A stretch of 64,000 nt of DNA from an uncultured Methanosarcinaceae archaeon. GTDB taxonomy: Archaea > Halobacteriota > Methanosarcinia > Methanosarcinales > Methanosarcinaceae. The notes under the pieces were generated by a model. That model saw only the letters and a list, made by a program, of their open reading frames with translations. It made no database searches and was not told the DNA's origin. The translations under genes were made by a program, and so were the position numbers. How positions within the stretch are numbered: the stretch's first letter is position 1; the number at the start of each line of letters is the position of its first letter. Positions 19,355 to 55,935 of the stretch are shown here, piece after piece. Location of the stretch: NCBI GenBank assembly GCA_963833425.1, contig CAWHXP010000008.1:574526-638525 (forward strand). The letters are read 5' to 3'.

Positions 19355-20209
19355 GGTTCCGTTGCAAAAAATTCAAAAAAATATGTAAATCTATAAGTGA
19401 TGAATAAAAATCAGAATATTCAAGGAAAATGCACTAACATTATAAAACTATGTCAAACAATCGATTATTGTATTTGACTTCATTAAGAACAGAGTAATTT
19501 AAATTATTGACTTGTCTCTTTTTAATCATATTCATAGCTTCAATTCCTTTTAAAGTCTTATTAGCAGATCGAAAAGACTGAAATCCTAACATTGGATTAA
19601 CGATTCGCTTTATAGATCTGTGACCTTGTTCTATAATGTTATTCAAATACTTGATTTGTCGAATGCCTACGTTCTTAAGTAGTATTTTATCAATTTTTAG
19701 TTTATCTATAGCATGTGGATAAGCTGGATTCTTATCAACGGTTGTTAATCTTGGAATTTGATTATGATTAGAACTTAAAGCTTTCTTAAAGAATCTCTTC
19801 GCTGCCTTTCTATCTCATTTTGAACTTAACATGAAATCAATTGTATCTCCATTTGAGTCAACTGCTCGGTAAAAATATTCCCATTTATCTTTTACTTTGA
19901 TATAGGTTTCATCAACTCTCCACGAATCATTTATTGGTCTTAAATGTCTTCTTATCTTCTTTTCTATTTCAGGGGAATATTGATGTACCCATCTCATGAT
20001 TGTTGTATGGTCGACTTTTATTCCCCTTTCTGCCATCATTTCCTTTAAATTTCTATAACTTAATGCATATTTTAAGTACCATCTTACATTTAATAGGATA
20101 ATTTCCCCTTCATAATGCTTCCATTTAAAGGAATTAGATAGCATGTTACTATCTTTGGTTTTCTTTTTATTCAATTGTATTAGTAGAAAGGATTTTTTGC
20201 GATGGAACC
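19355..20209 (-). mobile_element. IS6-family element (855 bp); transposase 19440-20144 interrupted by one in-frame TGA at 19817-19815
   Basis: TIRs GGTTCCGTTGCAAAAAAT / ATTTTTTGCGATGGAACC; motifs VDHTTIMRWV, WRVDETYIKV, YRAVDS, TVDKNPAY, NNIIEQGHR. Confidence 0.92.
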
Positions 20210-20245
20210 CCAATTCTTGATATACTCTGGAACGAATTAAATTAC

Positions 20246-21211
20246 ATGAATCTGGAGAAAACCGCAGGAGAAAGTGATTGCACGGGACGAATATACTCCG
20301 ATATAACAGAGACAATAGGTAACACACCGCTTGTCCGGTTGAACCACATGACAAAAGGTCTACATGCTGATGTGGTGGTTAAACTTGAGTCTTTTAACCC
20401 ACTGGGGAGTGTAAAGGATAGGATTGGATTGGCAATGATCAAGGGAGCCGAATGCGATGGTAAAATTAAATCTGGCACTATAATAGTTGAAGCAACTAGC
20501 GGTAACACTGGGATAGCGCTTGCAGGCGTATGCGCTGCCCGTGGCTATAAGCTTATACTGGTCATGCCTGAGACAATGACCATCGAAAGAAGAAAACTGT
20601 TGCAAGCTATGGGGGCAGATATCATCCTGACACCCGGGAGAGAAGGAATGAAAGGTGCCGTCAGTACAGCAGAGCAAATAGCTGCAGAAGATCCGATGCT
20701 TTATTTCATGCCCAAGCAATTTCAAAATCCTGAAAACCCTGAAATCCATCGCAGAACGACTGCCGAAGAAATATGGAAAGATACTGACGGCAAGGTGGAT
20801 GTGCTTGTAGCAGGTGTAGGAACAGGCGGAACGATTACAGGCGTCGCAGGCGTCATCAAAAAAAGGAAACCTACTTTCAAGGTAGTTGCAGTCGAACCTG
20901 CAGAGTCTCCAGTTCTCAGCGGAGGAAGTCCGGGATTCCATAGGATCCAAGGCATTGGTTCAGGGTTCATTCCGGCTGTACTTCGGCTTGACTTGGTTGA
21001 TGAAATAATTAAGGTAACTGGAGACGATGCAGCTGCTACGGCCAAAAAATTAGCAAGAAACGAAGGCATACTTGCAGGCATATCTTCAGGTGCAGCTACA
21101 TATGCGGCACTGCAAGTTGCTTCCAGAGAAAAAATGAGTGGGAAAATGATTGTTGTAATCTTGCCAGATACGGGAGAACGTTATCTGAGTACCAATCTAT
21201 TTGACGATTGA
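20246..21211 (+). CDS. cysK: Cysteine synthase A (O-acetylserine sulfhydrylase)
   Basis: [11 protein letters not shown] (PLP lysine), [30 protein letters not shown]. Confidence 0.97.
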
Positions 21212-22469: not shown

Positions 22470-23267
22470 TCATAGTATTTCATCCATACTACCGCTTCTA
22501 TATCCTTTCAGGTCGAGAGTAACATAAGAAAAGCCGTATTCTTGCAATAACTCCACGATTCTATGTCTAATGTTTAATGCTTTTTCGAATTCTTCAGGCA
22601 TCAACTCTATTCGCGCAATTTTACCGTGCAACCGTACGCGCAGATTGGAAAATCCTAGATCTTGCAATATATTTTCGGCGTTTTCCACCATTTGCAGCTT
22701 TTCAATCGTTATCTCTTCACCATATGGAATTCTTGACGCTAGACATGAAGATGATGATTTGTTCCAAAAATCAAAACCGCAATCTTGAGCTATCTGTCTT
22801 ATATCAGCTTTATGAATTCCTAGATAAATAAAAGGGTGAATGATTTTCTCCTCATTGCTTGCTTGAAGTCCAGGACGGTATTCATTAAGATCTGAAGCGT
22901 TAATTCCATCAGCTATATTTGAAATAGCCAGCTTTTCAGCTTGGTCTCGTAGAATCCTCGCAGACTGCTTTTTGCAAATGTAGCAGCGATTGGGATTATT
23001 TCTCCTAAATTCTTCATTTTCCATTATGGAAAAAGGCAATATGCTACAAGATAATCCGAATTTATTCGCGATATCCACCGCGTCATTAACTGCTCTTCTT
23101 GAGACTATAGGCGCATCAAAAAGTATACATTTTGCTCTCTCGTGAAGAGCTTTTTGCGCTAATACCGCAAGTAAAGTGCTGTCTATGCCCCCAGAATATG
23201 AAATGAGTAAGCTTTCAAATCCTGATAGCTCTTTGAGCAATGCGTCGCATATATTTTCTTTTTCCAT
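22470..23267 (-). CDS. larE: LarE-family ATP-dependent sulfur transferase (PP-loop)
   Basis: SYSGGIDS PP-loop, RCYICK, DGINASD..YRPG, SSCLASRIPYG, LRVRLHG, DLKGYRSGSM. Confidence 0.88.
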   Translation of the reverse strand: MEKENICDALLKELSGFESLLISYSGGIDSTLLAVLAQKALHERAKCILFDAPIVSRRAVNDAVDIANKFGLSCSILPFSIMENEEFRRNNPNRCYICKKQSARILRDQAEKLAISNIADGINASDLNEYRPGLQASNEEKIIHPFIYLGIHKADIRQIAQDCGFDFWNKSSSSCLASRIPYGEEITIEKLQMVENAENILQDLGFSNLRVRLHGKIARIELMPEEFEKALNIRHRIVELLQEYGFSYVTLDLKGYRSGSMDEIL

Positions 23268-24150
23268 GGATGAATGCCGACTTTTTAATTTTTCAAGATT
23301 TTTTTGCAAATTTCATAATGTTATATTTTTTAGCATCATTCACTATTGTGAATAGACTGAAAAAGATATTATTGGTAAAATACTTTTTGTCCCGAAAATG
23401 AAAGCTTAGGGATCTTCGCATAATTGATGTGATAAAAACAAATGTAATGCTTAAAATGATGCATTACGGAGATTCTAATAAAAAAATATTTGTCTAGAAT
23501 AAGTACATTCTCGGAACGAACAGTTCTCTTGAATATCCAGATAGCATCTCATTGAAAACTCCTTATATCACTTTATCAAAAAGCTGTTTAATCCGAAGAT
23601 CAACTTTTTTTCCAGGGAAGGAGAATTCACAATTTTCTAGTTCTGATGATGAACGGTAAACGAATTTACAAGGAAGATATTGAATCCATTAAACTTTCAG
23701 AAGGTAATGGAATTGTACTTTTTTCCTCGGTATTAGGAAATTGATCGTTGACGAGGAAAATATTTTATATTGACACAACAAAAATGATTTTAGCATGACC
23801 TCAACAATTGATGTGAAAAAGGAGAATAACAGATGAATAGATCCCTTTTTCATGTATCGTTAGAATAAATGGAGGCATTCTTAGTGAAAATTATCTAAAT
23901 GCTAAAATTTAAAGTTACAAAATAGAAAAGATTCATTAGCGTGGATTCCACTAATTATGAGATTATTGTGTAATCGTTGAAAGTGGGATCATTTTGAGTT
24001 AAAGCAACTTTCTTGTGAAGAACTTATTTTACTTTTTCAATTTGGAGGAGATCATAAAGTTCGCAAGTTAAAAAGTTCCATGGCTTCTTCGCGTTAGAAA
24101 TTCCGACGCTTTATATTTCCTCCGAAAAAGGTTGTAATTGAGGATTTTAC

Positions 24151-24630: not shown

Positions 24631-24903
24631 CTAAAATGGACTAAAGAGGATTCCTATCAATTTCCGATTTTCGCAAGCTATTTATGCATAATTTATTAGC
24701 ATGTGACTATATTTTGTTGTTTCTAGAAATCCTCTTTTATCATATCTATGAAGAAAATTACAATTTTTAATTAGTTTATTCGTGCTATTTTTATTATTTT
24801 TTAATCATATAAGGACATCTACCTCCAAATTATATCCTTTAGAGGATATTTTTTGCCTATTTTAGGGAATCTTTATAAAATCCAGATATTAATAATTGAC
24901 TAT

Positions 24904-25731
24904 ATGACACAACAATCTGCGACACAGCAATTCACTCTTACCATTATTTCTGGAAAAAACAGGTTTAGAGAGCAGGAAGGATTTGACCGTATAGAGATCA
25001 GACCTGGGGACACCTTGTCAATTGTTGGTCCTACCGGCTCAGGAAAATCAGCTTTCATTAATGATATTGAAACCCTTGCACAGGGAGATACAGTTACAGG
25101 CAGAACGATTCTCATCAATGGAGAAGTTCCCCCAGAGTCTTTTGTACGGGAACCGGCCTTCAAACCGATTGCCATGATAACCCAAAACACACGTTGTTTG
25201 GCAGATCTCACAGTCGAAGCATTCATATTAATGCATATAAGAGCACGACGGCCTGGTAAGGAGGATTTGCTTGGTGAGACAATTAATCTTGCAAATACAT
25301 TCACTGGAGAAAAAATAAGTCTTAAGAGTCGAATGAGTGCTTTATCTGGAGGTCAAACGAGGTCTATTATGATCGCAGATGCACTTATAGTCGGCGATAC
25401 TCCAATACTTCTTCTCGATGAGATCGAAAACGCAGGTATCTTCAAAAATCGTGTAATGCAGGCTATTCAGGGAGGAAATAAAGCTGTTGTTCTTGTAACA
25501 CACGATCCGTATCTCGCTCTCACAGCCGATAAGCGCATAGTGATGAGAAATGGAGGAGTTTACTCTGTGATCGAACCTACGGGCCAGGAGCAATACATTA
25601 TTGAAGATCTTGCATTAATTGAAACCAAGCTAAATCAAATAAGAGAGAAAATTAGACTTGGAACTGCTCTCTCTTCCTGTTCTTCGGAAGGTTTAATGAT
25701 AGCAGTTGGCCAAGGTGTGGCTTCTAAATGA
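24904..25731 (+). CDS. Stand-alone ABC-type ATPase
   Basis: Walker A GPTGSGKS, signature LSGGQ, Walker B LLLDE, H-loop VTHD; no permease adjacent. Confidence 0.88.
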   Translation: MTQQSATQQFTLTIISGKNRFREQEGFDRIEIRPGDTLSIVGPTGSGKSAFINDIETLAQGDTVTGRTILINGEVPPESFVREPAFKPIAMITQNTRCLADLTVEAFILMHIRARRPGKEDLLGETINLANTFTGEKISLKSRMSALSGGQTRSIMIADALIVGDTPILLLDEIENAGIFKNRVMQAIQGGNKAVVLVTHDPYLALTADKRIVMRNGGVYSVIEPTGQEQYIIEDLALIETKLNQIREKIRLGTALSSCSSEGLMIAVGQGVASK

Positions 25732-26432
25732 AGCTTCTTATAATTGCAGGTCCTCCAAGTGGAGGAAAAACTGCTGTGATTCGCCAGATTATAAGAAATC
25801 TTCCTGAAGATGCACTTCCCTCCTTTCTGAAAATTGATGTTGTACACGCAACTGAAGATCAGGAACTTGCAGAAGAATTTTGTATTCCTGTTAAGAAAAT
25901 ATATTCCGGAGATGTTTGTCCTGATCACATGGGAATTCTGGTCCTTGATGATGCAGTGAACTGGGCTAAAAGCCTATCCCGAAATATTCTTATAATCGAA
26001 AGTGCAGGCCTCTGTTTGAGATGTACTCCTTATACAACGCAATCTCTTGGAATTGCAGTTATCAGCGCGATATCAGGAACAAATTCACCACTCAAAATGG
26101 CACCTTTGATTGCTCTTGCAGATGTCGCAGTTGTTACCAAAACCGATCTCGTGTCACAAGCAGAAAAAGAAGTTTTTAGGGAAAGTATCAAAAAAGTTGT
26201 CTCAGATATTGATATTATAGAGACAAATGCAATTCAGGGAACTGGGTTAAGATATCTGATGAGACGGATTGCCGACCAGTCGGATATGGGGTCAGAACCT
26301 GTAGTGCTCAGAGGCTCCCCGCCACTAGGAGTATGTACTATATGTATAGGCAAAAAAGAGATAGGATGGAAAAATCACTTTGGAGTCATCAGGCCACTGG
26401 ATATGCCAGATCCTATGTACAGAGGTGACTGA
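25728..26432 (+). CDS. HypB/UreG-like (G3E) metallochaperone GTPase
   Basis: GPPSGGKT, VCPDH, ESAGLCLRC, TKTD and C-terminal CTIC; ATGA overlap with the upstream gene. Confidence 0.85.
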   Translation: MKLLIIAGPPSGGKTAVIRQIIRNLPEDALPSFLKIDVVHATEDQELAEEFCIPVKKIYSGDVCPDHMGILVLDDAVNWAKSLSRNILIIESAGLCLRCTPYTTQSLGIAVISAISGTNSPLKMAPLIALADVAVVTKTDLVSQAEKEVFRESIKKVVSDIDIIETNAIQGTGLRYLMRRIADQSDMGSEPVVLRGSPPLGVCTICIGKKEIGWKNHFGVIRPLDMPDPMYRGD

Positions 26433-27091
26433 TGGTTAATACATGGAGTCCACCTGGGAAAAATTGTGGGGCTTGTGGATCTCATACGTGTAATGATTTC
26501 ATTGATCGTCTTGGAGAAGGATCAGCAGAGTTAGACTTATGTCCATTCTACAGTAGTGAGAATATCATAGGTCAGGATACTACCTTTACCCTGGGGAATT
26601 CCGAAATTCAGGTCAGAAATGCCACTTATTCTGGTATAGATGTTACTGGAAGAGAATATGACTTCGTACTTCTCCCGTTCCCGGGTGAGCCATCAGCACG
26701 CAAGTTTATAGTACCTTTTAGGGCAGATCTTGTCGAATTGTGGGGAATTAAAAAAGGAGACCTAGTAATTGGCCGTCCTGCAGGACCAGGCTGTCCTCTT
26801 TATCATGCTTTAAAGGTCTTGAGTGCAAACCCTGTAACAGGAGTACTTGAGTGTCATACTGTAGGCCCTCTAGCTGCACGAAAAGAAGATTCTCATGATG
26901 TCCAAGCATATCATGTCCATGCTTTCGAAGGAGTTGTCAGTATTATAAAAAAACCACCTGTCCTTGGAACCCGTCAGTATTTCCTGCCTGGTAGCTGTAT
27001 GATGGATCTCGCACATACAGCTCTTGTAAACATGATTTTCCATAAGCCCTTTGGAACTCATGTCCGGCTTGAAGATATAAGGATATTATGA
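26432..27091 (+). CDS. Fe-S cluster-binding protein
   Basis: N-terminal PGKNCGACGSHTC...LCPF (CxxCxxxxC..C, RnfB/CdhE-type FeS domain); TGATG overlap. Confidence 0.8.
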   Translation: MVNTWSPPGKNCGACGSHTCNDFIDRLGEGSAELDLCPFYSSENIIGQDTTFTLGNSEIQVRNATYSGIDVTGREYDFVLLPFPGEPSARKFIVPFRADLVELWGIKKGDLVIGRPAGPGCPLYHALKVLSANPVTGVLECHTVGPLAARKEDSHDVQAYHVHAFEGVVSIIKKPPVLGTRQYFLPGSCMMDLAHTALVNMIFHKPFGTHVRLEDIRIL

Positions 27092-27115
27092 GAATATTGA
27101 ATAGATCGGGGTACT

Positions 27116-28360
27116 ATGAAGACTATTGACGAAATAAATGAGAAAATCGCCCGTGAAGAAGCAATTATTCTTACAGCGGCCGAGCTTAAATCCATTGTAC
27201 GTGACGGTCAAAAGATAACTGCTAGAGATGTGGATGTAATTACTACAGGAACATTTGGCGTGATGTCCGGTACCATGGCAGTTATGATGGTACCTGTTGC
27301 GGAAAAATGTAGTTTTGAAAAAGCGGATTCAATTTGGCTAAATGGTGTGCCGGCTCAGCCTGGCCCCTGTCCAAACGAACGTCTTGGAGTTGTGGACCTT
27401 GTCATTAACGGGACATCACATGCAGATGACCGATATGGCGGAGGACATCTTTTTAGAGATCTTGTAAAAGGAAAAGAGATCGACATTTTTGTTGAAGCTC
27501 ATGGCAGAACTTACGAAAATAGAGTTACTCTTGATGATATCGAGTTTGCCAGGATCATTACCACAAGACTTGCATTTAAGAATTACCATGCGTTGATAAA
27601 TCCCACTGCAACTACGATGAGTACTATATTCTCTGTGACAGGTCTAACAGGTCCTTTTACAGAAGCATCCGTATCGGGATGTGGCGAAATAAACCCTTTA
27701 CAGAATGATCCATACCATAGAATAATTGGGATAGGTACACGAGTCCTCTTAAATGGCGCTTCAGGTTATATTATGGGAAGAGGAACCAGGTCCAGCCCAG
27801 ATAAACCGAATGTCTCTGCCTTTGCAGACATGAAGGCCATGGACCCTAGCATGATGGGCGGAATGAAAACTTCCCATGGTCCTGAGTGTCTAACCTCACT
27901 TGCAGTTCCAATACCTGTTTTGGATGAAGAGATTCTCTTGGGATTAAAAGTTCTTGATCGTGATATTCCATTGCCTGTTTCAGACATAAACGGGCGTACT
28001 GCTCACACAAAAGTAAACTACGGACATATCTGGGAAGGCACCGATAAAGTTATCCGGGTCGACAAGGACAGGTGTCTCAACCATCCCGATTGTCCTGCAA
28101 TGCGCACGTGTCCTACGGAAGCAATTTCAGACCGTTTCGTAATTAACAGGCATCTATGTATCAACTGCGGTACTTGTACCCTACAATGTCCTGGAGGGGT
28201 ATTCCGTGCAAGACTTGGATCCATAGATTTGGCTGAAGGATCTGTCCCTATTTCGCTAAGACAATCAGATAGAGCCAGGGCGGAAAAGCTCTGTATGGTG
28301 CTTAAAAATCGTATTCAAAATCATAAATTCATACCAACGAAGATGATGGAACCGCTGTAA
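27116..28360 (+). CDS. Methanogenesis marker 16 metalloprotein (DUF39 homocysteine-biosynthesis family plus ferredoxin domain)
   Basis: KTIDEINEKI, DVDVITTGTFGVMSGT, GPCPNERLG, SGCGEINPLQNDP, C-terminal CINCGTCTLQCP. Confidence 0.85.
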   Translation: MKTIDEINEKIAREEAIILTAAELKSIVRDGQKITARDVDVITTGTFGVMSGTMAVMMVPVAEKCSFEKADSIWLNGVPAQPGPCPNERLGVVDLVINGTSHADDRYGGGHLFRDLVKGKEIDIFVEAHGRTYENRVTLDDIEFARIITTRLAFKNYHALINPTATTMSTIFSVTGLTGPFTEASVSGCGEINPLQNDPYHRIIGIGTRVLLNGASGYIMGRGTRSSPDKPNVSAFADMKAMDPSMMGGMKTSHGPECLTSLAVPIPVLDEEILLGLKVLDRDIPLPVSDINGRTAHTKVNYGHIWEGTDKVIRVDKDRCLNHPDCPAMRTCPTEAISDRFVINRHLCINCGTCTLQCPGGVFRARLGSIDLAEGSVPISLRQSDRARAEKLCMVLKNRIQNHKFIPTKMMEPL

Positions 28361-28671
28361 CAGAGTCCAAATTTGTGAACATACTTGAGATCGCAGTACT
28401 AGTGGCAGGTCAGCAATATAAAGTTGTAGAATGAAAGTTCTGTAAAAATTCAATTATCTCACATCCTTTTTTACTAGTGGCTGTAAGGTACTAAAGATAG
28501 TAAGCATAAGAATATCTTTGCATTTTTTCAAATTATTCGGTAAAACTTATTTTTTCATAATTAATCAAGGACCCTAGGATACGATCAAGTTATTGAATTG
28601 GATCATTTCTTATGATTGAGAATAATATCCCGATAGACAATTAAAATATTTACAGCACATATGTTGGCTTC

Positions 28672-30709: not shown

Positions 30710-32021
30710 TCAGAGCTTAAGGACCTTTGCGGCTTTTAAAGCACTGAAAACCATAGTTTCAATATCCATCTTTTTTTCTTCAAGCGCAATTAGATCGTAA
30801 TTTGCCCCTATTTCGGGATGTTCCGGGACGGCAGTACATGTACCTACTGATCTACTGGAAATATCATAAGTCCCAATTTTGCGGGCCATATCCATAATCT
30901 CTGTTTTGTCAAAGGCGATCAAAGGGTGATAGACTGGAACCGCAAGTTGATAAACCTCAGCATACATGTTGGCAGCAGTTTGAGATGCTACCTGTCCGAG
31001 GGAAGAGCCGGTGATAATTCCACTTGCTTTTTCCTTTTTCATGATCTCGTAGGCTTCTCTGTACATCATGCGTTTACAGAGAAGACATGTATTCTTCCTA
31101 TTGCATTTTGCGATAAAGGATTGCAGATTAGGACCATGAGGAATCTCATAAGTTGTAAACTGATGCCCTGGAGCCCACTTATGGAGCTGGCGGATGCAAT
31201 CAAAAACACGCTCATTTGCCTCTTTTTGGGCATAAGGAGCATTGTTACAATAGACAAGAATAATCATAACTCCACGTTTCATCATGAGCCAGGCTGCAAC
31301 CGGTGAATCAAGCCCTCCTGACATTAGAACTACCATGCTGCCCTGTGTGCCAAGTGTGAGTCCTCCGATCCCTTTAAATGTTTTCAGATAAACATACGCT
31401 AAATTTTGCCGCATTTCGACGAAGATCTCCTTATCAGGAGAAGTTAGGTTAACTCTAGGTTTTTTTTCCTAATTTTTCCATGAAATTCCAGACCGCATCT
31501 CCACAGGCTTTAGCAATATCTACTGAGGAAAAAGGATGGTTCCCACTTTTCCTCGCTCTGATTGCAAAAAACTCACCATCATGAATAAAATCTTGACCAA
31601 GAGCTGCACATACACTAGCTGCATCTTCAAGGCTGGCTCCTGTTGTCAACGCAGCGGAAGTTGAGACAACCCCAAAAACATCGGCTACTGTTTCAGCAGC
31701 TTGAGAATTCGTGGTCTCAATGAATATCCTGCCCCATTCCCGACGAATTCGAGAATAGGAAATTTCTCTCGAATCCAACATTGCCGCAATATTTTTTAGA
31801 AGGATTTTCTCATACCAGTTCCTAATTCCAGGACTTTTAAGAGCAAGTTCTCCATAACGGACTATAACCACATCTGTCGGAACTTCAGTCTCTGAACGAT
31901 AGGAGCCAGAAAAATGCCTAGACATATTTTCATCATATTTTTTTTGCATTCGTCCGCTTTTTTCCTGAATATGAACATCAGGTTCAATTTTTGTTTCAGC
32001 ATCATTGGATTTGTTTGTCAT
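30710..32021 (-). pseudogene. thiI: tRNA 4-thiouridine synthase, split by a +1 frameshift in an A8 run (31460-31467)
   Basis: VRYGELALKS and THUMP region; SGGLDS PP-loop, CLLCKR, SLGQVASQT. Removing one A restores GKKPRVNLTSPDKEIFVEMRQ. Confidence 0.88.
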
Positions 32022-36461: not shown

Positions 36462-37628
36462 ATATTTGAGAATGTAATTTATCTTGACAATGCCGCAAGC
36501 ACCAGGTTGGATGAACGGGTACTTGAGGCGATGAAGCCTTACTTTTTTGATACATATGCAGTAGCTACATCTGAATTTGGCTATTCTATGGGCATAGAAT
36601 CAAAAGAAGGACTTGAAAGAGCTCGTGAAATCATAATTTCAAAACTCGAAGCAAGTTCCGGAGAGGTAATTTTCACTTCTGGTGACACGGAGTCGAGCAA
36701 TGCAGCGCTTAAAGGAGTAGGTTGGGCTCTTAAGGAAAAGAAAGGAAAGCATGTCATTGTCTCGAAGATAGAGGATTTTTCTGTGCTGAATACAGCAAAA
36801 GCCCTCCAAAAACAGGGGTTTGATGTGACTTTTCTGGACGTGGATTCAGAGGGATTTGCATGTATGGAAGAATTAAGAAAAGCGATTACAAAAGAGACAG
36901 TTCTTGTCTCGATTCAGCACGGAAATCAGGAAATAGGGACTGTGCAGGACCTGAAGGCTATCTCAGAAATATGTGAAGAAAAAGATGTGCTCCTGCATAC
37001 AGATGCTACCCATAGCTTTACACGGCTTCCCCTAAGTGTGAAAGAATTGCCCATAGACCTAATAACAATGTCAGCACATACCATTCACGGTCCGCGTGGA
37101 ATAGGCGCTCTCTTCATCCGCAAAGATACCAGGATAAATAAATTCATGGATGGAGGTTTTCAAGAATTCAACTTGAGGGCAGGTGTCGAAAATATTCCCG
37201 GGGCTATAGGCTTTGGAAAGGCTATAGAACTCGTAACCGAAGGGGAAATAAGACGTCTCAAGTCAATGAGAGATCGGGTAATTGATAAATCTCTTTCCGA
37301 AATCCCGGATGTTACCCTCAACGGAAACCGAGAGAAACGCTTACCACAGAATGCAAACCTGACTTTCCATTATGTAGAGGGGGAATCCATAACTTTGCAT
37401 ATGGATATGAGGGGTTTTGCTGTGAGCACAGGTTCAGCTTGTTTTAGTCGTTCTCTAGAATCCAGTCACGTAATCAGAGGGATAGGAGGAGACCATGAGA
37501 GAGCCCACGGTTCTGTACGCTTTACATTCGGACGCTACAATCACATGGGCGATGCTGACGCGGCAATTGATGCCATGAGTGAAGTTGTTGCAAAGCTCAG
37601 AGAAATAAGCCCACTTGTAAGAAAATAA
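36462..37628 (+). CDS. iscS: IscS/NifS-like cysteine desulfurase homologue with Thr at the PLP-lysine position
   Basis: IYLDNAAST lies in frame upstream of the called TTG 36507; FTSGDTES, HTDATH, SAHTIHGPRG, STGSACFS. The codon at the RBS-predicted start (36462) is ATA. Confidence 0.88.
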   Translation: MFENVIYLDNAASTRLDERVLEAMKPYFFDTYAVATSEFGYSMGIESKEGLERAREIIISKLEASSGEVIFTSGDTESSNAALKGVGWALKEKKGKHVIVSKIEDFSVLNTAKALQKQGFDVTFLDVDSEGFACMEELRKAITKETVLVSIQHGNQEIGTVQDLKAISEICEEKDVLLHTDATHSFTRLPLSVKELPIDLITMSAHTIHGPRGIGALFIRKDTRINKFMDGGFQEFNLRAGVENIPGAIGFGKAIELVTEGEIRRLKSMRDRVIDKSLSEIPDVTLNGNREKRLPQNANLTFHYVEGESITLHMDMRGFAVSTGSACFSRSLESSHVIRGIGGDHERAHGSVRFTFGRYNHMGDADAAIDAMSEVVAKLREISPLVRK

Positions 37629-37716
37629 AATTTAACAAAGGGTAAGCATATCACAGGGAAAGTAGAATGAATGGAAAGCAGAATAATAAATTGAAGACGG
37701 AGAGATCGGTGAGACA

Positions 37717-38352
37717 ATGAAGTTTCCTTACAGTGAAAAAGTACTGGAGCATTTCAGGAACCCACACAATGTGGGAAATATAGAAAATCCTGATGGAAAG
37801 GGCCTTGAAGGAAGCCCTGCATGTGGAGATATGGTTGCAGTTTATATCAAGGTAAGTCCCGAAACAAAGGTTATTGAAGATATAAAATTCGAATCTTATG
37901 GCTGTGCCTCAAACATTGCTACAGCTTCAGTTATTACAGATCTTGCCCGTGGAAAGACTCTCGATGAGGCAAAGAAGTTAACATGGAAACTGGCTTCTGA
38001 AGAACTTGGGGGTCTACCTCCGATCAAAGCTCACTGTTCGGTGCTTGCAGTTGAGGGTCTGCGTGCTGCTATCCGAGACTACGAAGAAAAGCATGGGCTT
38101 GTTCTCGAAAAAGAGAGAACAACCGAAGAAGTTGTCCGTCGCAGACTCAAGCACGTTATGAACCCACTAACAGGCCTTGATATTATCCGCACGAACCTTA
38201 TCCTTAAAATAAGTATTGAAGATGGAGTGGTGAGGGTGGTTGTCGACTTGCCGTCAGATCACCAATTTGCTTCGGCTATCAAGGAAGACATTACAGAAAA
38301 GCTGAGGTCTTTGTGGGATGTGGAAAGAATAAATGTAGTATTTACAGCATGA
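37717..38352 (+). CDS. iscU: IscU/NifU scaffold fused to a C-terminal DUF59-like domain
   Basis: YSEKVLEHFRNPHNVG, SPACGD, YGCAS, LPPIKAHCS; extra ~75-aa tail. Confidence 0.9.
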   Translation: MKFPYSEKVLEHFRNPHNVGNIENPDGKGLEGSPACGDMVAVYIKVSPETKVIEDIKFESYGCASNIATASVITDLARGKTLDEAKKLTWKLASEELGGLPPIKAHCSVLAVEGLRAAIRDYEEKHGLVLEKERTTEEVVRRRLKHVMNPLTGLDIIRTNLILKISIEDGVVRVVVDLPSDHQFASAIKEDITEKLRSLWDVERINVVFTA

Positions 38353-48412: not shown

Positions 48413-48693
48413 TCCAGCACAATTTTGATTGAAATTCGCTATGTAAATCAAAATAATATTAATGGAGCAAGTCTCCAATAATTCTAATCTTTAATGTTAA
48501 CAGTGGAAAAATAATACGGTATATTTATGTAATGTTTCTTCTCATGTAGTTGTTGCTCAAATGGGTGAAATTTATTATTTATATAGCACATTATTTACTG
48601 AATTCATAGCTTTTCACTTTCAACGATATGCTCAAACAGGCAAGAAGGAACCACCACAAAGTTAATTGCAGCTCACAATTTGGAGGAGAATTA

Positions 48694-50307
48694 ATGCCAG
48701 TGTTCATTGAAATTAAGAATTTAAGTGTAGAATTTGACGGTCTTAAAGCGCTGAAAAATTTAAATTTAAGCATCAATGAAGCGGAAATAGTTGGAGTTTT
48801 GGGAAAAAGTGGGTCAGGAAAAACAATCCTAATGCATGTGTTGCGTGGGACTGAATCTTATCAAAATATCTCAGGTGAAGTAATTTACCATCTTGCCCGC
48901 TGCAAGAAGTGCGGATACATAGAACGCCCAAGTCTGAAGAACCAGAAGTGCCCGGTTTGTGGAGAGATACTCGAAGCTTTTGAAGCTGATTTTATAAAAC
49001 TTTCCCTTTATGATCCGATAAGGAAAGATATTACTAAAAGAATTGCAATCATGCTTCAGCGTTCCTTTGCTCTTTATGGCGACGAAAGAGTTATTGTAAA
49101 TGTTATTAACTCCCTACATGAGATTGGGTATCAGGAACAGAATTCCATAAAAAAGGCAGTTGAATTGCTAGAGGAAGTAAATCTGGGTCACCGAATGATG
49201 CATGTTGCAAGAGAACTTTCAGGTGGAGAAAAGCAGAGGGTTGTACTTGCGAGACAGCTTGTAAGAAATCCCTTGCTTTTGTTAGCCGACGAGCCCACAG
49301 GTACCCTCGACCCAATGACTGCAAAGTTAGTACATGATGCAATTATTAAAGCAGTTAGAAATTACAATATGAGCATGGTCTTTACATCCCACTGGCCTGA
49401 GGTCATCGAGAATCTAGCAGATAAGGCGATTCTCCTCGAAAACGGAGAGATCGTTCAGGAAGGGAACTCTCTTGAGGTCTCTGCAGTTTTTATGAAGAGC
49501 ATATGCATGGTGAGACAAGAAAAGAATACCATGATCGGAGAGCCTATAATTCGAGTAAAGGACCTCTCTAAACGTTATATTTCGGTAGATCGTGGTGTAG
49601 TAAGAGCTGTAGACAAAATATCTTTTGATGTTAAAGAAGGAGAGATCTTTGGGCTAGTCGGTGTTAGCGGAGCAGGCAAGACTACCACCTCGAAGATTCT
49701 GATGGGAATTTTACAACCTACATCTGGAGAAGTTGAGGTTCGAGTTGGAGATGAATGGGTTGATATGACAAAACTAGGTGTTAAAAATAAAGGACGGGCG
49801 ACTAAATATATGGGATTCCTACACCAAGAATATGGTCTCTACACTCAAAGCTCCGTAGTAGATAACCTCACTGAATCGATCAGCTTGGACTTACCTTTTG
49901 AACTTGGTGTCAAAAAAGCTTTAATCACCCTCAAAGCTGCAGGCTTTGAGGAAGAAAAAGCAAAAGCTATTTTACCCAAAATGACTGATGAAACAAGTGA
50001 AGGAGAGCGGCATAGAATTGCACTTGCTCAGGTTCTTATAAAGGAACCGAGAATCGTGATAATGGATGAACCTACAGGGACAATGGATCCAATTACTAAG
50101 ATATCTGTAGCAACCTCGATTCTTAAAGCTAGAGAAGAAATTGGGGAAACCTTTGTTATAGTTTCGCACGATATGGATTTTATAAACGAGATATGTGACC
50201 GTGTAGCACTCATGCGGGAAGGGAAGATTGTAGATATAGGGAAACCGAAGAATGTACTTTCACAGCTTACTGAAGAAGAATGGATCAAAGCTGCAGAAGA
50301 ACTATAA
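48694..50307 (+). CDS. atwA: Methyl-coenzyme M reductase system component A2
   Basis: Two ABC domains ([16 protein letters not shown]), CKKC/CPVC Zn motif, [21 protein letters not shown]. Confidence 0.95.
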
Positions 50308-50349
50308 ATATTCTGCCACCTTTTTGTACGAGAAAAATACTAAAATGAG

Positions 50350-51900
50350 GTGCTGATTACGAGTGATGATATCAGCGTAGAGGTGAACGGTCAAAAATAT
50401 ACTTTGCCTGCAGGCTCTACCCTTGGAGATGTCCTTAAAATTTCCAGAGCTCCCTACATAGCTGGTACAGCAATTGTTATTTTGAAAGACACTGCTGAGA
50501 AAAGGATGGAGACAATCACCGAATACGCTATCAGTACTCCTAAGGGAGAATTCAAGATAGGACTTAAAAAGCATAAGTCTCCCTCAGGAAAATTATGGGC
50601 TGAGCATTTTAAAGAATATGAAGGAAAACCTGTCCATTGGGCCAGTCCTGAAGCTCTGGCTCTCGGGCCTTTTGAGGCTAATATTAAGCCTTCTCACGAA
50701 ATCAAAAGCTTTGAAACATTTGATGTTCTTTTCGGTGCTGGAGGTTTTGACCCTAGTAATACGCATCTGATATTTTCAAGAAAAAGGCATACTGCAGAGT
50801 ATGGCACTCCCAAGGACAGCGTTTTTGCTGAAGTTGTTACTGGTAGAAAAATTTTGTTCAGACTTTCGAGAGGGGATAGCATTTTAAATATTAAGCCTAT
50901 TATAGAAAGTGAACAACTCTCAAAAAAAGCAAACACTACTGACCTTTCTACACTTCTTGAAAATGGGAATGGGATATTTACTTATCTTGAGTCTGAACTT
51001 TCCAGAAACTCTCCTATAGGTGCAGAACAATTTTATGCCCTGACTCGTGAAGGGACACTTAGCGTAGATGTGTCTACTAGCTCATTTATCTCGGATGATA
51101 GACTTAAAGGAGAACCTGTTCCATACGAAAATTTTGAGCCGAGAAGCGATGGTGCCATTTCTATCCGCACAGTGGGATACGGAGCAGGCAGGACTTATAT
51201 CTCCAAAGAAGAACGGCCTTCAAGTCTTGTACATTCAGTTGTTGGACATGTAACTAAAGGACTTGAACTCATAAAGCTAGCAGAAGCGGGCCAGAAAATA
51301 TCAGTTGAAAGTATCCCTCCCCAGATAGTACTCCTTGGGCATAGTTTTGAAGAGATAGATCCCGCACTTTCCTCCATAGGAATCGAATTAGTAAAGGCCG
51401 GATATACTGGAAAGGATGCTGTAATTGTCAGCCATGAACCATCCACAACGCTGGAAATTCTTGGAGAAGCTAAAGTAACTGCTTATGCGGTGTCCAAGGC
51501 AAAACTTATTGAAATTAAACTTTACCCTGAGAAAGCGCCTAAATCTGTGGACTTCTTCCGTCATTCGCTCGGACTTAAGACAAAAAAAGTTGGGAAATTG
51601 CCTATCTACATGGTATATGATAATACTTATTTATTCAAAACTGAAAAAGAAACCGTGAAATATAAAGAAATCCTCCCAGAGAATACGCCAATGAACAAAA
51701 TACTTGCTGGTGAGATCGGGATCACAAACCAGGCAGCAAAGAGGATGGGGACTATAGGGGTCAAACTCGTAGATGATGATCTTTTCGGCCCAACTGGAGA
51801 AAAATTTTCATCAACAAACCTTATAGGTCGGATCATCGAGCCTTCGAAGCTTAAAGATATCGCAGAAGGAGACGCGATATACGTAAGTGAAGTATTATGA
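50350..51900 (+). CDS. Methanogenesis marker protein 3
   Basis: AISIRTVGYGAGRTYI, KAPKSVDFFR, DLFGPTGEKFSSTNLIG; synteny with atwA; exact start uncertain. Confidence 0.9.
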   Translation: MLITSDDISVEVNGQKYTLPAGSTLGDVLKISRAPYIAGTAIVILKDTAEKRMETITEYAISTPKGEFKIGLKKHKSPSGKLWAEHFKEYEGKPVHWASPEALALGPFEANIKPSHEIKSFETFDVLFGAGGFDPSNTHLIFSRKRHTAEYGTPKDSVFAEVVTGRKILFRLSRGDSILNIKPIIESEQLSKKANTTDLSTLLENGNGIFTYLESELSRNSPIGAEQFYALTREGTLSVDVSTSSFISDDRLKGEPVPYENFEPRSDGAISIRTVGYGAGRTYISKEERPSSLVHSVVGHVTKGLELIKLAEAGQKISVESIPPQIVLLGHSFEEIDPALSSIGIELVKAGYTGKDAVIVSHEPSTTLEILGEAKVTAYAVSKAKLIEIKLYPEKAPKSVDFFRHSLGLKTKKVGKLPIYMVYDNTYLFKTEKETVKYKEILPENTPMNKILAGEIGITNQAAKRMGTIGVKLVDDDLFGPTGEKFSSTNLIGRIIEPSKLKDIAEGDAIYVSEVL

Positions 51901-52199
51901 ATGTGAACTGAAATATATGTTAAGAAAATGATAATGAATGTAAGACGATGAGATAATAGCTAATCTAATAAATAATAACTGTAATGTATGAAAAATAATA
52001 TTCACACTTTATTGTAATAATGGAAGAAAGGATAAATTAAAAACTAACAAATAAACTGGCTGCTAATGTGTGAAAAGCTTGCTAATGAGTAAGTTAATTC
52101 GTTGTAAGTTGCTTGCTAGATATCACGTGGTGCTTAAAAAGATTCGTAGTATGGATCCATCGCTTTTCAAGTTTCCCGTTGCTGAGGAGAAACAAAAAA

Positions 52200-52643
52200 A
52201 TGACGGAAACAAAAAATGAAACGGTTACAAAGTACATTGTAATCAGTTCAGATAAAGTGCTGCCATCAGATGCAGCTATGAAGATCTATGAATCGGAGTT
52301 CTCGGTTACGGTGAAAGAGACCTGTTTTGGACTTATAGTAACAGGACCGAAGGAGGAGGTCCAAACAGTGATCGAAAAAATCAGGCAGTTGGATAAAAAT
52401 CATATTTTTATAAAAGATAGAGGATTTCCTGCAGGAGATGGAAGGCGTTGTCGTGCAACCCTTGGAGGGGGACCACGGCCGGGATTTCATTTCCTTAGAG
52501 AAGAAGTTAAGATGCTCCCTTCCATAGGAGCTGCACTTGACGAATTGGATGAAAAAGCACCTGCAAGAGAACAACTTAAGGAGAAATCCAGGATTAAAGT
52601 TTCCGTTTTGGAAAAAATTATTGAAGAGGAGCTTGAGAGGTGA
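52200..52643 (+). CDS. Methanogenesis marker protein 6
   Basis: VKETCFG, IFIKDRGFPAGDGRRCRATLGGGPRPGFH. Confidence 0.9.
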   Translation: MTETKNETVTKYIVISSDKVLPSDAAMKIYESEFSVTVKETCFGLIVTGPKEEVQTVIEKIRQLDKNHIFIKDRGFPAGDGRRCRATLGGGPRPGFHFLREEVKMLPSIGAALDELDEKAPAREQLKEKSRIKVSVLEKIIEEELER

Positions 52644-52647
52644 GTTT

Positions 52648-53157
52648 TTGGCAAAGGTTTTCATTTATCCTGTAAATAGTCTTATTTTGGCTGACCTTAT
52701 TGAACGCTTCGGACACAAGCCCCTTGTCATCATGAATCAAATAAGAGAAAAGGTTACAAATATAAGCTTGGATTCTCCCCCAATAAATATCACTCCTGAG
52801 GATCCTAAATTAGGACTTCGATATGCTGCAATTGAAGTTCCTCCAGGAGTAAGAGGCAGGATGGCTCTAATAGGGCCCCTTATAGAAGATGCAGAAGCTT
52901 CAATAGTAGTCGAAAACCCACCTACAAACTTCGGTTGCGTGGGCTGTAACCGTACTAATGAACTGATGAAATATTTGATTCGCTCGAAAGGGATACCGGT
53001 TCTAGAGGTAAAGTATCCGGAGTCAGATGAGGGAGCTCATGACTTCGTGAGTAAAATAATAGAATTCCTGAAATCACTGCCTAGAGAAAAGTTGGGAGAT
53101 GAAGAAAAAGTAACAGATGAAGAACCTTCAAAAAGGAGACCGAAAAATGAGTTCTGA
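52648..53157 (+). CDS. Methanogenesis marker protein 5
   Basis: [43 protein letters not shown]. Confidence 0.9.
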
Positions 53158-54394
53158 AGAATTGGGCCCTGTTAAGATTGCCCTTGTATCCTGTGGTTCT
53201 GAGTATTCAGGCGTTCAGCCTGAGTTTGAATCTGCTGCAGAGAAGGTGAATGCAAAGTTCGTTTACCCTGAGATTGACATCGCATCCATGGATACAATAG
53301 GTAGGGATTTCGGTCTTGAGGTTGCAAGCGGAGACCTCAGACTCATGATGGCACGTGCAAAGGCTGTTGTTGAGGGCACAACCACTGTAGACGGAGTTTT
53401 CATTACCACATGTTTCCGCTGTGCCGAAGGGGCCATTGTCCGAAATGAGGTCAGAAGGTACATCCATAAGAACTCAAGAATCCCGGTGATTAGTTATTCG
53501 TTTACCGAACGCACCAGTGCAGGCACCTTACTTACCCGTCTGGAAGCTCTGACAACTATTGTCAGGCGCAAGCATCTTCTTACAAGGGAAATTCAGTCAG
53601 GACTGACTGCGGGGATAGACTCAGGGTCAACAACTACAAAAGCAGTGGTTATGAAAGATAATGAAATTATAGGCAAAGGCTGGGTGCCCACAACTAAAGT
53701 TATTGAAAGCGCAGAAGAAGCATATTCTCTTGCTCTGAAAGAAGCTGGGGTTTCCCTAGAAGAAATCCAGGCCCTGGGCACTACTGGATATGGACGTTTC
53801 CTAGTAGGAAACCATTTCAAAGCACAAATTGTCCAGGAAGAAATCACCGTTAACTCTAAAGGAGCTGTTTATCTTGCGAATAGGCAGAGAGGCTCTGCAA
53901 CAGTTATTGATATAGGTGGTATGGACAATAAAGCAATATCAGTTGAGGATGGTATTCCTGGAATGTTCACAATGGGAGGTATATGTGCCGGAGCTTCAGG
54001 ACGTTTCTTTGAAATGATCTCAAAGCGTCTTGGCGTAGATATTGCTGATTTTGGAGCTATGGCAGTCAAAGGAATGCAAGAAAATGTATTTATGAATAGT
54101 TACTGTATAGTTTTCGGAATACAATCTCTTGTAAATTCTCTTGCCAAAGGAGCTACTCCAGAAGATGTGGCGGCTGCAGCCTGCTATAGTGTTGTAGAAC
54201 AGATCTACGAGCAGCAACTGCAGGAAGTAGATGTAAGAGAGCCATTAATTCTTGTAGGCGGATCTTCTCTAATAGAAGGAGTTCCAAAAGCTCTCACAAA
54301 GCTCCTTAAGCTCAATGTTATTGTGCCGAAAAATTCTCACTTAATAGGAGCTGTAGGGGCAGCTTTACTTGCTTCTGGCTTTGTGGATGAGTGA
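53147..54394 (+). CDS. Methanogenesis marker protein 15 (ASKHA/activase-like ATPase)
   Basis: [43 protein letters not shown]. Confidence 0.92.
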
Positions 54395-54401
54395 GAAACA
54401 A

Positions 54402-55001
54402 ATGGATTCTCTTGAGATCTTTGTTGTAGATTCAGTAATCGCCTCGGAGCAGGAGTTTTACAGGAAAATTGTCGAGGATAACCTTGCAAGTCTAAAGCTT
54501 GCTCCGGCAATAGGAAGGATAAAGGTCATGTTAAGACCTGAAGATTCTCTTTTTCAAATGGCAATAATCCTCAGGGACGTCAGCAGTAAGGTTAAGATGA
54601 TTGATATTGCCGACGTAGAATCAAAATCATTTGCCAAGAAGATAATAATTTCGATCAAAAAGGAGCAGTATATTCCTGAGCTGTTAGAGAAACTGTGGGA
54701 ACTTTATGGAAAATCGAACATCAGCCAGCCTGACCGCTGGACTGTAGCTATAAGTACGGATGGGTCAGAGAAAGAAGTGGCTTTTATTAAAGAAATGGTG
54801 GTTGCGGATCCAAGGCACAGGATCCACGAAAATCTGGTCGATTTTGCAATTCGAATCACTCCTGAAGGTTTTAGAGTACGCTACCATCTATATAGAGGTA
54901 ATTGTTTTATTTTTGTAGCGTCCGAGGAAGCATTAAAAAATGAATGGATCGCTGAGGCAAAAGAAATGCTCGAAGAATTAACGGGAGCAGGCGAAAAATA
55001 A
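54402..55001 (+). CDS. Methanogenesis marker protein 17
   Basis: YIPELLEKLW, RITPEGFRVR, FVASEE; synteny. Confidence 0.88.
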   Translation: MDSLEIFVVDSVIASEQEFYRKIVEDNLASLKLAPAIGRIKVMLRPEDSLFQMAIILRDVSSKVKMIDIADVESKSFAKKIIISIKKEQYIPELLEKLWELYGKSNISQPDRWTVAISTDGSEKEVAFIKEMVVADPRHRIHENLVDFAIRITPEGFRVRYHLYRGNCFIFVASEEALKNEWIAEAKEMLEELTGAGEK

Positions 55002-55002
55002 G

Positions 55003-55935
55003 ATGGCTGCACTTACTCCTTATCTTTACACCGGTGGTGTCCACAAACATGGGCTTTTAATCGAACTACTGGAAGATCTAGGTGGCTATCTAATCCAGAA
55101 AGTGGTTACTGGGATTGAAGTCAACCTTCTGATGCTTATTCCTAAAAAGGATGTTCCAATTGTAAAAAAGCAATCTGATGAACTTCTTGGAATCTTTATA
55201 GAAGCTCCCCTTACATGCGTAGAGATTGCAATTGTTTCGCCGACTCTTGCCTCTCACCACCTTCCGCATTCAGCATGTGATGTAGCGGAATCCCTTCGCA
55301 GTCATGGAGCTAACACAAATATGATAGGTCTTGCCAGAGGTATGGGACGAAGGGTATCCCTATCTATGGACTATGAAAGAAAACTTATCAATGAACATGA
55401 TATTGCGGTATTCACATTCGGAGCCTTCAGTGACTGCATTATTAATAAGAAGCCAAAACTCTTCGAAGGTATCGAAATACCTATTGTTGTGACAGGCGGG
55501 CCAGATCTAAAAACTGAGGATATTCCTGGAGCAGATCTTTATGTTGGAAATATCGGAAGGACATCTCATAGATTAAGGAAAGCAGAAGAAGTTAATGCCC
55601 TTGACAAACTTAGTAAAGAGATTGGAAAAATAGCTGATGATATTCGGGAACACCAGTCAAAAGATCAACTCTCAGTTATTCCTGTCAAAGTCATGACAGA
55701 GATCGAAAATCAGTTCCCTGAGATCCACAGTGTGCTTTCTCCTGCTCCGCTCACCCTTCAGCTTGATGGGATCCGGGTCAAACTACCGTATGATGAATTT
55801 CATGAAAAAGTCGAACATATTGAATTTGATGAAAGTGTTGTCCTTTCTGAGCTTGCGAATATTTCAAGGTCAAAAATGAAAAATTATATATTGATAAAGA
55901 TCAAATCTAAGTCTGAAGTTGGTTTTGCAATTTAA
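55003..55935 (+). CDS. Methanogenesis marker protein 7
   Basis: YTGGVHK..LIELLEDLGG, HHLPHSACDVAE, TNMIGLARGMG. Confidence 0.9.
   Translation: MAALTPYLYTGGVHKHGLLIELLEDLGGYLIQKVVTGIEVNLLMLIPKKDVPIVKKQSDELLGIFIEAPLTCVEIAIVSPTLASHHLPHSACDVAESLRSHGANTNMIGLARGMGRRVSLSMDYERKLINEHDIAVFTFGAFSDCIINKKPKLFEGIEIPIVVTGGPDLKTEDIPGADLYVGNIGRTSHRLRKAEEVNALDKLSKEIGKIADDIREHQSKDQLSVIPVKVMTEIENQFPEIHSVLSPAPLTLQLDGIRVKLPYDEFHEKVEHIEFDESVVLSELANISRSKMKNYILIKIKSKSEVGFAI

Follow-up and report, generated by a model that had tools for sequence, protein, structure and literature searches.

Why should the gene for a putative coenzyme M (CoM) synthase be preceded by genes for two nucleoside triphosphatases (NTPases) and a small iron-sulfur (Fe-S) protein? 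The question is raised by a four-gene operon at positions 24904-28360 (plus strand) of a 64,000-nucleotide stretch of DNA from an uncultured Methanosarcinaceae archaeon (assembly GCA_963833425.1, contig CAWHXP010000008.1, positions 574,526 to 638,525), referred to here as the window. The operon encodes an ATP-binding cassette (ABC)-type ATPase, a G3E-family GTPase and a COG2000 Fe-S protein (together, the trio), followed by MMP16b, a member of the methanogenesis marker 16 (MMP16) family. CoM is indispensable for methane formation and the last step of its biosynthesis is only partly understood; a three-gene cassette with two NTPases, which accompanies CoM genes in methanogens of different lineages, is an obvious missing piece. 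With moderate confidence, the locus is read here as a "type I" CoM synthase operon whose first three genes are an accessory cassette of the pathway as a whole, the operon being a transferred xenologue.

Organization of the operon

Four intact open reading frames (ORFs) lie on the same strand in the order ABC-GTPase-COG2000-MMP16b, as seen both in the ORF list and by direct reading:

24904..25731, plus strand, soluble ABC-type ATPase, trio gene 1, 275 residues (PF00005, 53 bits)
25728..26432, plus strand, G3E-family GTPase, trio gene 2, 234 residues (PF02492, 47 bits)
26432..27091, plus strand, COG2000 Fe-S protein, trio gene 3, 219 residues (PF04060, 40 bits)
27116..28360, plus strand, MMP16b, ComF-type coenzyme M synthase paralogue, 414 residues (TIGR03287, 507 bits)

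Read from the sequence, the ABC and GTPase genes share an ATGA overlap (25728-25731) and the GTPase and COG2000 genes a TGATG overlap (26430-26434), while the COG2000 stop codon (27089-27091) is followed, after a gap of 24 bp, by the ATG of MMP16b (27116). An earlier note, made from the sequence alone, had described this layout, with its overlaps and gap, as a coupled operon. The layout was confirmed, and the operon proved to be real, conserved and translationally coupled, the same order recurring in many loci. The absence of a membrane component, also remarked on in that note, held as well, since no transmembrane (TM)-rich ORF (at least four hydrophobic segments) was found in the 17-36 kb portion of the window.

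The last gene, which the note had assigned to marker 16, belongs to that family: TIGR03287 was matched with 507.2 bits (cut-off, 363.95) over residues 18-405 of 414. The protein matched PF01837 (COG1900/DUF39) with 338 bits, together with Fer4 matches that correspond to an inserted ferredoxin domain. All the cysteine motifs that the note listed for this protein are present, namely GPCPNE (83-88), SGCG (187-190) and a ferredoxin-type Cys set (320-358), and residues C85, C189, C320, C326, C332, C348, C351, C354 and C358 were kept in at least 95% of 73 MMP16 sequences. The AlphaFold2 model (mean predicted local distance difference test score [pLDDT], 93.9) yielded no Foldseek match at E ≤ 0.001. 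MMP16 has been identified as ComF, the primary CoM synthase of Methanosarcina acetivorans, which cannot do without it in the absence of sulfide but can at high sulfide; the conserved cysteines of its core are not required (Chadwick et al. 2025, PLoS Genet, PMC12068725; this paper was available in part, and what is cited from it here refers to that part). MMP16b is thus a ComF-type enzyme by family and, by analogy with these homologues, would convert sulfoacetaldehyde to CoM by reductive thiolation. The role in homocysteine synthesis that the note had suggested for the DUF39 protein did not stand: marker 16 is ComF and acts on sulfoacetaldehyde, and the homocysteine enzyme is a paralogue, L-ASST (PMC12068725).

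Literature searches on COG2000, methanogenesis marker 16 and CoM/sulfoacetaldehyde returned no function assigned to the three upstream genes and no biochemistry of them, and a J Bacteriol paper of 2025, in the part available, merely mentions MA3299 in passing. Thus, the earlier statement that the module lacked biochemical characterization was borne out for the upstream genes. Their co-localization, however, is already in print: an ATPase, a Ni-GTPase and COG2000 are described as often lying beside CoM genes, "role unknown" (PMC12068725, Fig 2 legend), and some of the cassette arrangements given below may also appear in the figures of that paper. What is new here is that the cassette tracks the CoM pathway and not MMP16, that it is associated with sulfur genes, that the operon appears to be a transferred accessory one, and that it carries what seems to be the sole MMP16 of its genome.

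Distribution of the trio and its partners

In a draw of 201 genomes of the phylum, in which COG2000 was counted when full-length and MMP16 at E ≤ 1e-60, COG2000 was found in 49 genomes, MMP16 in 96 and both in 44. Thus, 44 of the 49 COG2000 genomes carried MMP16, and only 5 of the 105 genomes without MMP16 carried COG2000 (G078, G175, G087, G093 and G099; G093 has a COG1900 fragment at a contig edge, so that the absence of MMP16 there is not established). No COG2000 match was obtained in 52 of the 96 MMP16 genomes. Hence, the cassette occurs almost exclusively in genomes with MMP16, though in far from all of them.

The order ABC-GTPase-COG2000-MMP16 was found in 22 of the 29 loci of the draw. 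As for the remaining seven, one carries MMP16 on the other strand, in two (G078 and G175) no MMP16 accompanies the trio, and the four from family f15 show the GTPase and COG2000, some with a gene inserted. An identical four-gene order was also present in six congeners and in further Methanosarcina records, as well as in four of five loci of a Methanomassiliicoccales-type clade, the fifth lying on a contig that ends after COG2000 (three of these loci are labelled Methanomassiliicoccales or Methanomethylophilaceae, one "uncultured archaeon" and one Faecalibacterium, the last probably by a binning error).

Other partners were found in other lineages. Methanothrix and other Methanosarcinales contain a distant "type II" trio with no adjoining MMP16. 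In two other Methanosarcinaceae genera (L128, L129 and L133) the arrangement is cysteate synthase (cs)-ABC-GTPase-COG2000-comD-comE, convergent on the native MMP16 of those genomes (MMP16a), and in G078 the genes next after the trio are those of cysteate synthase and ComDE. No MMP16 was found in G078 or G175, both complete-looking, where the only COG1900 protein is L-ASST-like (36% identity); the trio locus of G175 is unannotated. For its part, the Methanobacteriota contained COG2000 in 54 of 121 genomes. The GTPase and COG2000 genes were adjacent there in 16 of 16 loci, 13 of them with the ABC gene in the fetched range, and ComA was encoded upstream of the trio in the four loci scanned with Pfam (4/4), an equally long ORF occupying this place in 8 of 8 loci. 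In L183, L186, L188 and L190 the ComA stop codon overlaps the next start codon, and a PF01996 (F420-ligase family) gene lies downstream.

In at least three lineage groups of methanogens, then, the trio forms a fixed cassette, and the window locus, in which ABC-GTPase-COG2000 adjoin a CoM gene, is one of its occurrences. The neighbourhood and phylogenetic profiling proposed in the earlier note showed that the genes do recur together, in 22 of the 29 draw loci and in other lineages. The trio belongs to the CoM pathway and has a variable partner, which may be MMP16, cysteate synthase plus ComDE, or ComA.

This variability bears on the proposal of the note that the module is dedicated to the DUF39 enzyme, with the NTPases inserting a metal or cluster into MMP16 and COG2000 acting as scaffold or reductant. 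Such a maturase would agree with the tight coupling of the four genes in type I loci, where COG2000 and MMP16 abut or overlap (e.g., L101, L107 and L108), with the presence of MMP16 in 44 of 49 COG2000 genomes, and with the HypB/UreG-type ligands of the GTPase. Nevertheless, the trio is coupled elsewhere to ComA or cs/comDE, away from MMP16; it occurs in G078 and G175 without any MMP16 found; and MMP16a was present in 12 of 12 congeners searched, 5 of them trio-free. The note had also held that a DUF39 protein active on its own would argue against its proposal, and MJ1681 alone has been reported to let Escherichia coli make CoM (PMC12068725, citing White 2019), which speaks against an obligatory maturase. 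We consider a dedicated machine doubtful. Because the partners vary, trio-bearing genomes without MMP16 exist and 52 of 96 MMP16 genomes show no COG2000, the trio is better described as a pathway accessory than as an obligatory MMP16 maturase.

The ComA and cysteate synthase neighbours raise another explanation, in which the cassette would make, carry or channel sulfite for ComA and cysteate synthase at the first CoM step. In Methanobacteriota the ABC gene adjoins or overlaps that of ComA (L183); a cysteate synthase gene identified by Pfam borders the cassette in L126 and L128, its place being taken in L129 by an unannotated ORF of similar size; and the source of sulfite for CoM synthesis is said to be unclear in the available part of PMC6286981. 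Yet the type I partner is MMP16, a user of reduced sulfur, no siroheme, flavin or molybdopterin domain suited to a six-electron oxidation was recognizable in the trio, and many CoM-making genomes gave no trio match, so that a role in sulfite supply appears very improbable.

Properties of the three trio proteins

The ABC ATPase consists of a single nucleotide-binding domain, whose Walker A, Q-loop, LSGGQ, Walker B-Glu and H-loop elements were conserved in at least 95% of 53 homologues. It reached no NCBIfam family; the best match, with 56 bits, stayed below its cut-off (255). In a survey that covered the operon and the 4 kb around the GTPase, no TM-rich ORF was present in 17 of the 23 related loci for which long flanks were available. 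The other six had dissimilar TM-rich genes, the three identified by Pfam being a molybdate-type permease, a Na/H exchanger and a P-type ATPase. The "permease-less" description of the earlier note was therefore upheld for the operon and for these 17 loci. An ATPase that energizes a distant transporter (an importer of sulfonate, CoM or metal), with the GTPase and COG2000 as regulators or unrelated neighbours, would account for a weak general likeness to importer ATPases and for the NMT1/SsuA-like gene that faces the trio in G078. It is hardly credible in view of the lack of a conserved permease, the six exceptions being mutually unrelated, and of the low NCBIfam score; in addition, the three genes keep their order in distant lineages and have stop/start overlaps, which argues for one machine.

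The GTPase is of the G3E family (PF02492, 47 bits; cut-off, 20.7) and shows the P-loop GPPSGGKT, the guanine-specificity motif TKTD and the metal motif CPDH. Its Cys motifs lie at 64-67 (CPDH), 96-99 (CLRC) and 203-206 (CTIC), as listed in the note, and the CPDH aligns with the CPH of solved UreG. Residues C64, P65, D66, H67, C96, C99, C203, C206 and H217 were kept in at least 95% of 59 homologues. The protein is not HypB or UreG proper by the respective models (TIGR00073, 54 bits against 121; TIGR00101, 30 bits against 204), but the "HypB-like" label of the note is justified in that the HypB/UreG-type metal ligands are retained.

COG2000 begins with a four-Cys cluster domain of a type that also occurs in RnfB (PF04060, 40 bits; cut-off, 23), in which C12, C15, C20 and C37 were invariant in 41 sequences. 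This N-terminus resembles the cluster domain of the large subunit of the corrinoid Fe-S protein (CFeSP) (Foldseek match to 4djd_C with probability 1.0; root-mean-square deviation, 1.2 over 36 columns). The C-terminal domain is beta-rich in the AlphaFold2 model (mean pLDDT, 86); C121 and H125 were invariant in the same 41 sequences and C189 and H195 nearly so. In the ESM Atlas the C-terminal part matched its own family alone (scores of 0.75 to 0.77), and sequence searches of the PDB returned no solved COG1900 domain and no solved COG2000 C-terminal domain.

Genes of sulfur metabolism accompany the cassette in some loci. In G040 (L130, 8283-11628) the GTPase and COG2000 genes are separated by a gene for a cysteine desulfurase. 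In the Methanosarcina genome G007 (L012, 5837-10618) an IscS-like gene and FdhD come after the trio, in the place of MMP16b, and COG2000 has an insertion of about 24 residues. Moreover, a paralogous cassette composed of a DUF1858-SBP_bac_6 protein, a G3E GTPase and an ABC protein was found in G004 (L191, 5590-8610) and G007 (L192, 5813-8791); its GTPase is 36-37% identical to that of the window, and its ABC protein, which has an N-terminal extension, 40-42%. This second cassette suggests that the two NTPases may form a reusable unit for different small clients. The neighbouring genes, and the absence of a conserved permease, would fit an NTP-driven loader of a metal-sulfur centre.

If the ABC-GTPase pair were a general two-NTPase loader with COG2000 as its client in CoM clusters, COG2000, and not MMP16, might be the conserved deliverer of sulfur or electrons for CoM thiol formation, acting with any COG1900 partner or with none. 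Such a role would explain the trio-bearing CoM clusters without MMP16 (G078 and G175). We hold it to be distinctly unlikely.

Origin of the operon in Methanosarcina

The genome of the window belongs to the genus Methanosarcina. MMP16a was found in all 12 of the congeners first searched and is 46-48% identical to MMP16b, which was present in only 6 of the 12, with 82-83% identity (82-86% over the copies of other Methanosarcina as a whole). COG2000 was present in 7 of 16 distinct congeners. In Methanosarcina barkeri 3 (G004), MMP16a lies beside ComDE and cysteate synthase, away from the four-gene operon.

Two trees were built by quick searches, one of MMP16 (75 rows) and one of the concatenated trio (51 rows). 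Repeat genomes (L013, L126, L127, L131 and L134), loci cut by contig ends (L004 and L026), and high-scoring segment pairs that covered less than 85% of the query or contained stop codons were dropped beforehand. In the MMP16 tree, MMP16b fell in a 34-row clade (Shimodaira-Hasegawa-like approximate likelihood ratio test [SH-aLRT], 97) with families f8, f18, f20, f28 and f29 and the Methanomassiliicoccales, and MMP16a grouped with other Methanosarcinales. Duplication within the genus was rejected as the origin of MMP16b: forcing MMP16a and MMP16b into one clade cost 154.5 log-likelihood units (approximately unbiased [AU] test, p-AU 4e-71). In the trio tree, Methanosarcina was sister to g50 of f18 (SH-aLRT, 99), nested within the same range of lineages, and monophyly of the Methanosarcinales trios was rejected (p-AU 0.0063).

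Outside the genus, the nearest named proteins were those of Methanolobus chelungpuianus (73%) and of Methanoregula, Methanospirillum and Methanomicrobium (62-68%). Because the last three are the close named proteins, families f8, f18, f20, f28 and f29 are probably Methanomicrobiales. Methanomassiliicoccales had at one point been taken as the nearest kin, from a pattern-based scan that missed these probable Methanomicrobiales families, and were set aside after later searches. Overall, the trees and AU tests, which the note had proposed as a check, favour transfer into Methanosarcina and point to an accessory xenologue probably acquired as a whole unit from a Methanomicrobiales-like lineage.

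A Methanosarcina without a trio match (G131) retains an MMP16b-like remnant (L135, 6064-6348; 76-81% over about 117 residues), which suggests that the operon was lost there.

A search of the 21 contigs (4.07 Mb) assembled for the genome of the window revealed no MMP16a. Contig C7 (297050-299547; L182) is syntenic with M. barkeri 3 over cysteate synthase and ComDE, and the synteny stops exactly where MMP16a would be expected; after ComDE come a cytidylyltransferase-like gene and RadA. ComDE itself is intact and 81% identical to that of M. barkeri 3. MMP16b thus appears to be the sole intact MMP16 seen in this genome. A partial second MMP16b (residues 277-414, 96% identical, one frame change) is located at the end of contig C16 (97020-98931; L015) beside a frameshifted ThiI, and represents either a segmental duplication or a strain variant.

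Proposed role of the cassette

Under the pathway-accessory reading, the two NTPases would serve to load or restore a metal-sulfur centre of the small COG2000 protein, with the four-Cys cluster and the conserved C-terminal Cys/His site as candidate positions. COG2000 could then hand sulfur, low-potential electrons or both to the sulfur-incorporating chemistry of the pathway, and the outcome would be efficient CoM synthesis when sulfide or metal is scarce. It seems reasonable to regard the cassette as an NTP-driven helper of the sulfur-incorporating step. The hypothesis is sharpened by three observations, namely, a cassette that follows the pathway, the occasional cysteine desulfurase, and the transfer of the unit with MMP16 into Methanosarcina.

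Several points weigh against this reading. The absence of a COG2000 match from 52 of 96 MMP16 genomes, and from 9 of 16 Methanosarcina genomes, makes the cassette dispensable for CoM synthesis in many lineages, and the report that MJ1681 suffices in E. coli goes in the same direction. The C-terminal Cys/His residues of COG2000 are a candidate second metal site by conservation; residues 73-219 gave no Foldseek match in the PDB at E ≤ 0.001, a wide VIA-align comparison of the C-terminal domain gave a best Z score of 4.0 (phage baseplate and PilZ-type barrels), which is uninformative, and no fused forms of COG2000 were seen among longer proteins, which is weak evidence. As for the transfer, the Methanomicrobiales label derives from the three named genera only, the trees are quick searches, and the clades submitted to the AU test were named after the trees had been seen. 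Finally, the assembly is 80% complete, so that MMP16a could lie in unassembled DNA, and cysteate synthase on C7 shows three frame changes, which may be real or assembly errors.

Possible expression signals and neighbouring genes

Two candidate sequence signals flank the operon:

24872..24880, plus strand, TATA-box-like TTTATAAAA, about 28 bp 5' of the ATG at 24904
28467..28472, plus strand, run of six T, about 107 bp 3' of the MMP16b stop codon

Both were read from the sequence. An alternative start of the ABC gene, TTG at 24853, would give 292 residues instead of the 275 obtained from the ATG at 24904. With the customary archaeal spacing between TATA box and start, TTTATAAAA is a possible promoter of a leaderless or near-leaderless mRNA, and the T run is a possible archaeal terminator.

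Each of the four genes is covered in part by metatranscriptome contigs of relatives (92-97% alike). The ABC/GTPase junction was bridged by RNA-library contigs from two studies and the GTPase/COG2000 junction by those from one, and no contig among them bridged the COG2000/MMP16b gap. These are contigs, from which strand, transcript ends and level are not readable and in which DNA carry-over is possible, and they constitute a weak hint of expression of the operon.

The note had stressed that the frames are intact despite surrounding decay. The frames are indeed intact, but the argument from decay is weakened by the one break inspected, that of ThiI (30710-32021, minus strand), which lies in two frames with the break at a run of eight A (about 31460-31467) and is a single gene of 469 residues in M. 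barkeri 3. Because this frameshift could equally be an assembly error, the intact frames of the operon are weak evidence of selection.

Other sulfur genes in the window near the operon are cysK, LarE, ThiI, IscS-like and NifU-like genes, with features at 19815-20354 (minus strand), 20246-21211, 22470-23309 and 36507-38352. A fragment of an IS240-type DDE transposase overlaps the start of cysK, and extra copies of cysK, LarE and ThiI are present in the genome. Farther downstream (48628-55935, plus strand), the window contains genes for an AtwA-type double ABC ATPase, a 516-residue protein without Pfam match, DUF2102, DUF2112, a BcrAD/BadFG-type ATPase, DUF2113 and an McrC-family protein, a run that we take to be a methanogenesis-marker cluster for activation of methyl-coenzyme M reductase (MCR).

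Comparison with known systems

ABC-type ATPases without a permease are known from metal-sulfur chemistry, namely SufC, of the SufBCD system of Fe-S assembly, and A2/AtwA, of MCR activation. The ABC ATPase of the trio is like them in being of the permease-free soluble type. In the SUF system SufB and SufD provide the scaffold, whereas no SufB/D-like gene was seen at the annotated CoM loci. A2/AtwA has two nucleotide-binding domains, and the trio ATPase has one; an AtwA-type gene is present in the same window (48628-50307).

With HypB and UreG, the GTPase shares the P-loop, the Cys-Pro-(Asp)-His motif and the Cys after the Walker B strand. It differs from them in an additional C-terminal CxxC...H extension and in scores below both equivalog cut-offs. 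Moreover, it is always paired with the ABC ATPase, and partners of the HypA, UreE or UreF type are absent.

MMP16b and the ComF proteins MA3299 and MJ1681 have in common TIGR03287, the COG1900 domain and the inserted ferredoxin, and Cys95 and Cys202 of ComF correspond to C85 and C189. Compared with the native type of Methanosarcina, however, MMP16b is linked to the trio, whereas the native type is linked to cs/comDE. L-ASST (MA1821/MA1822) shares with MMP16b the COG1900 domain, a ferredoxin partner and the reductive thiolation of an aldehyde, but it is a COG1900a protein with CBS domains that serves homocysteine synthesis, and in none of the loci seen was it linked to the trio. The L-ASST-like protein of this genome, on contig C7, shows 32-36% identity.

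The CoM-associated trio has been noted before (PMC12068725, whose available part gives no analysis of it), and the window locus, with members of the same three families in a comparable setting, is one more instance of it. It differs in that it is an additional MMP16 operon, the native MMP16 of the genus being located with cs/comDE and having no trio.

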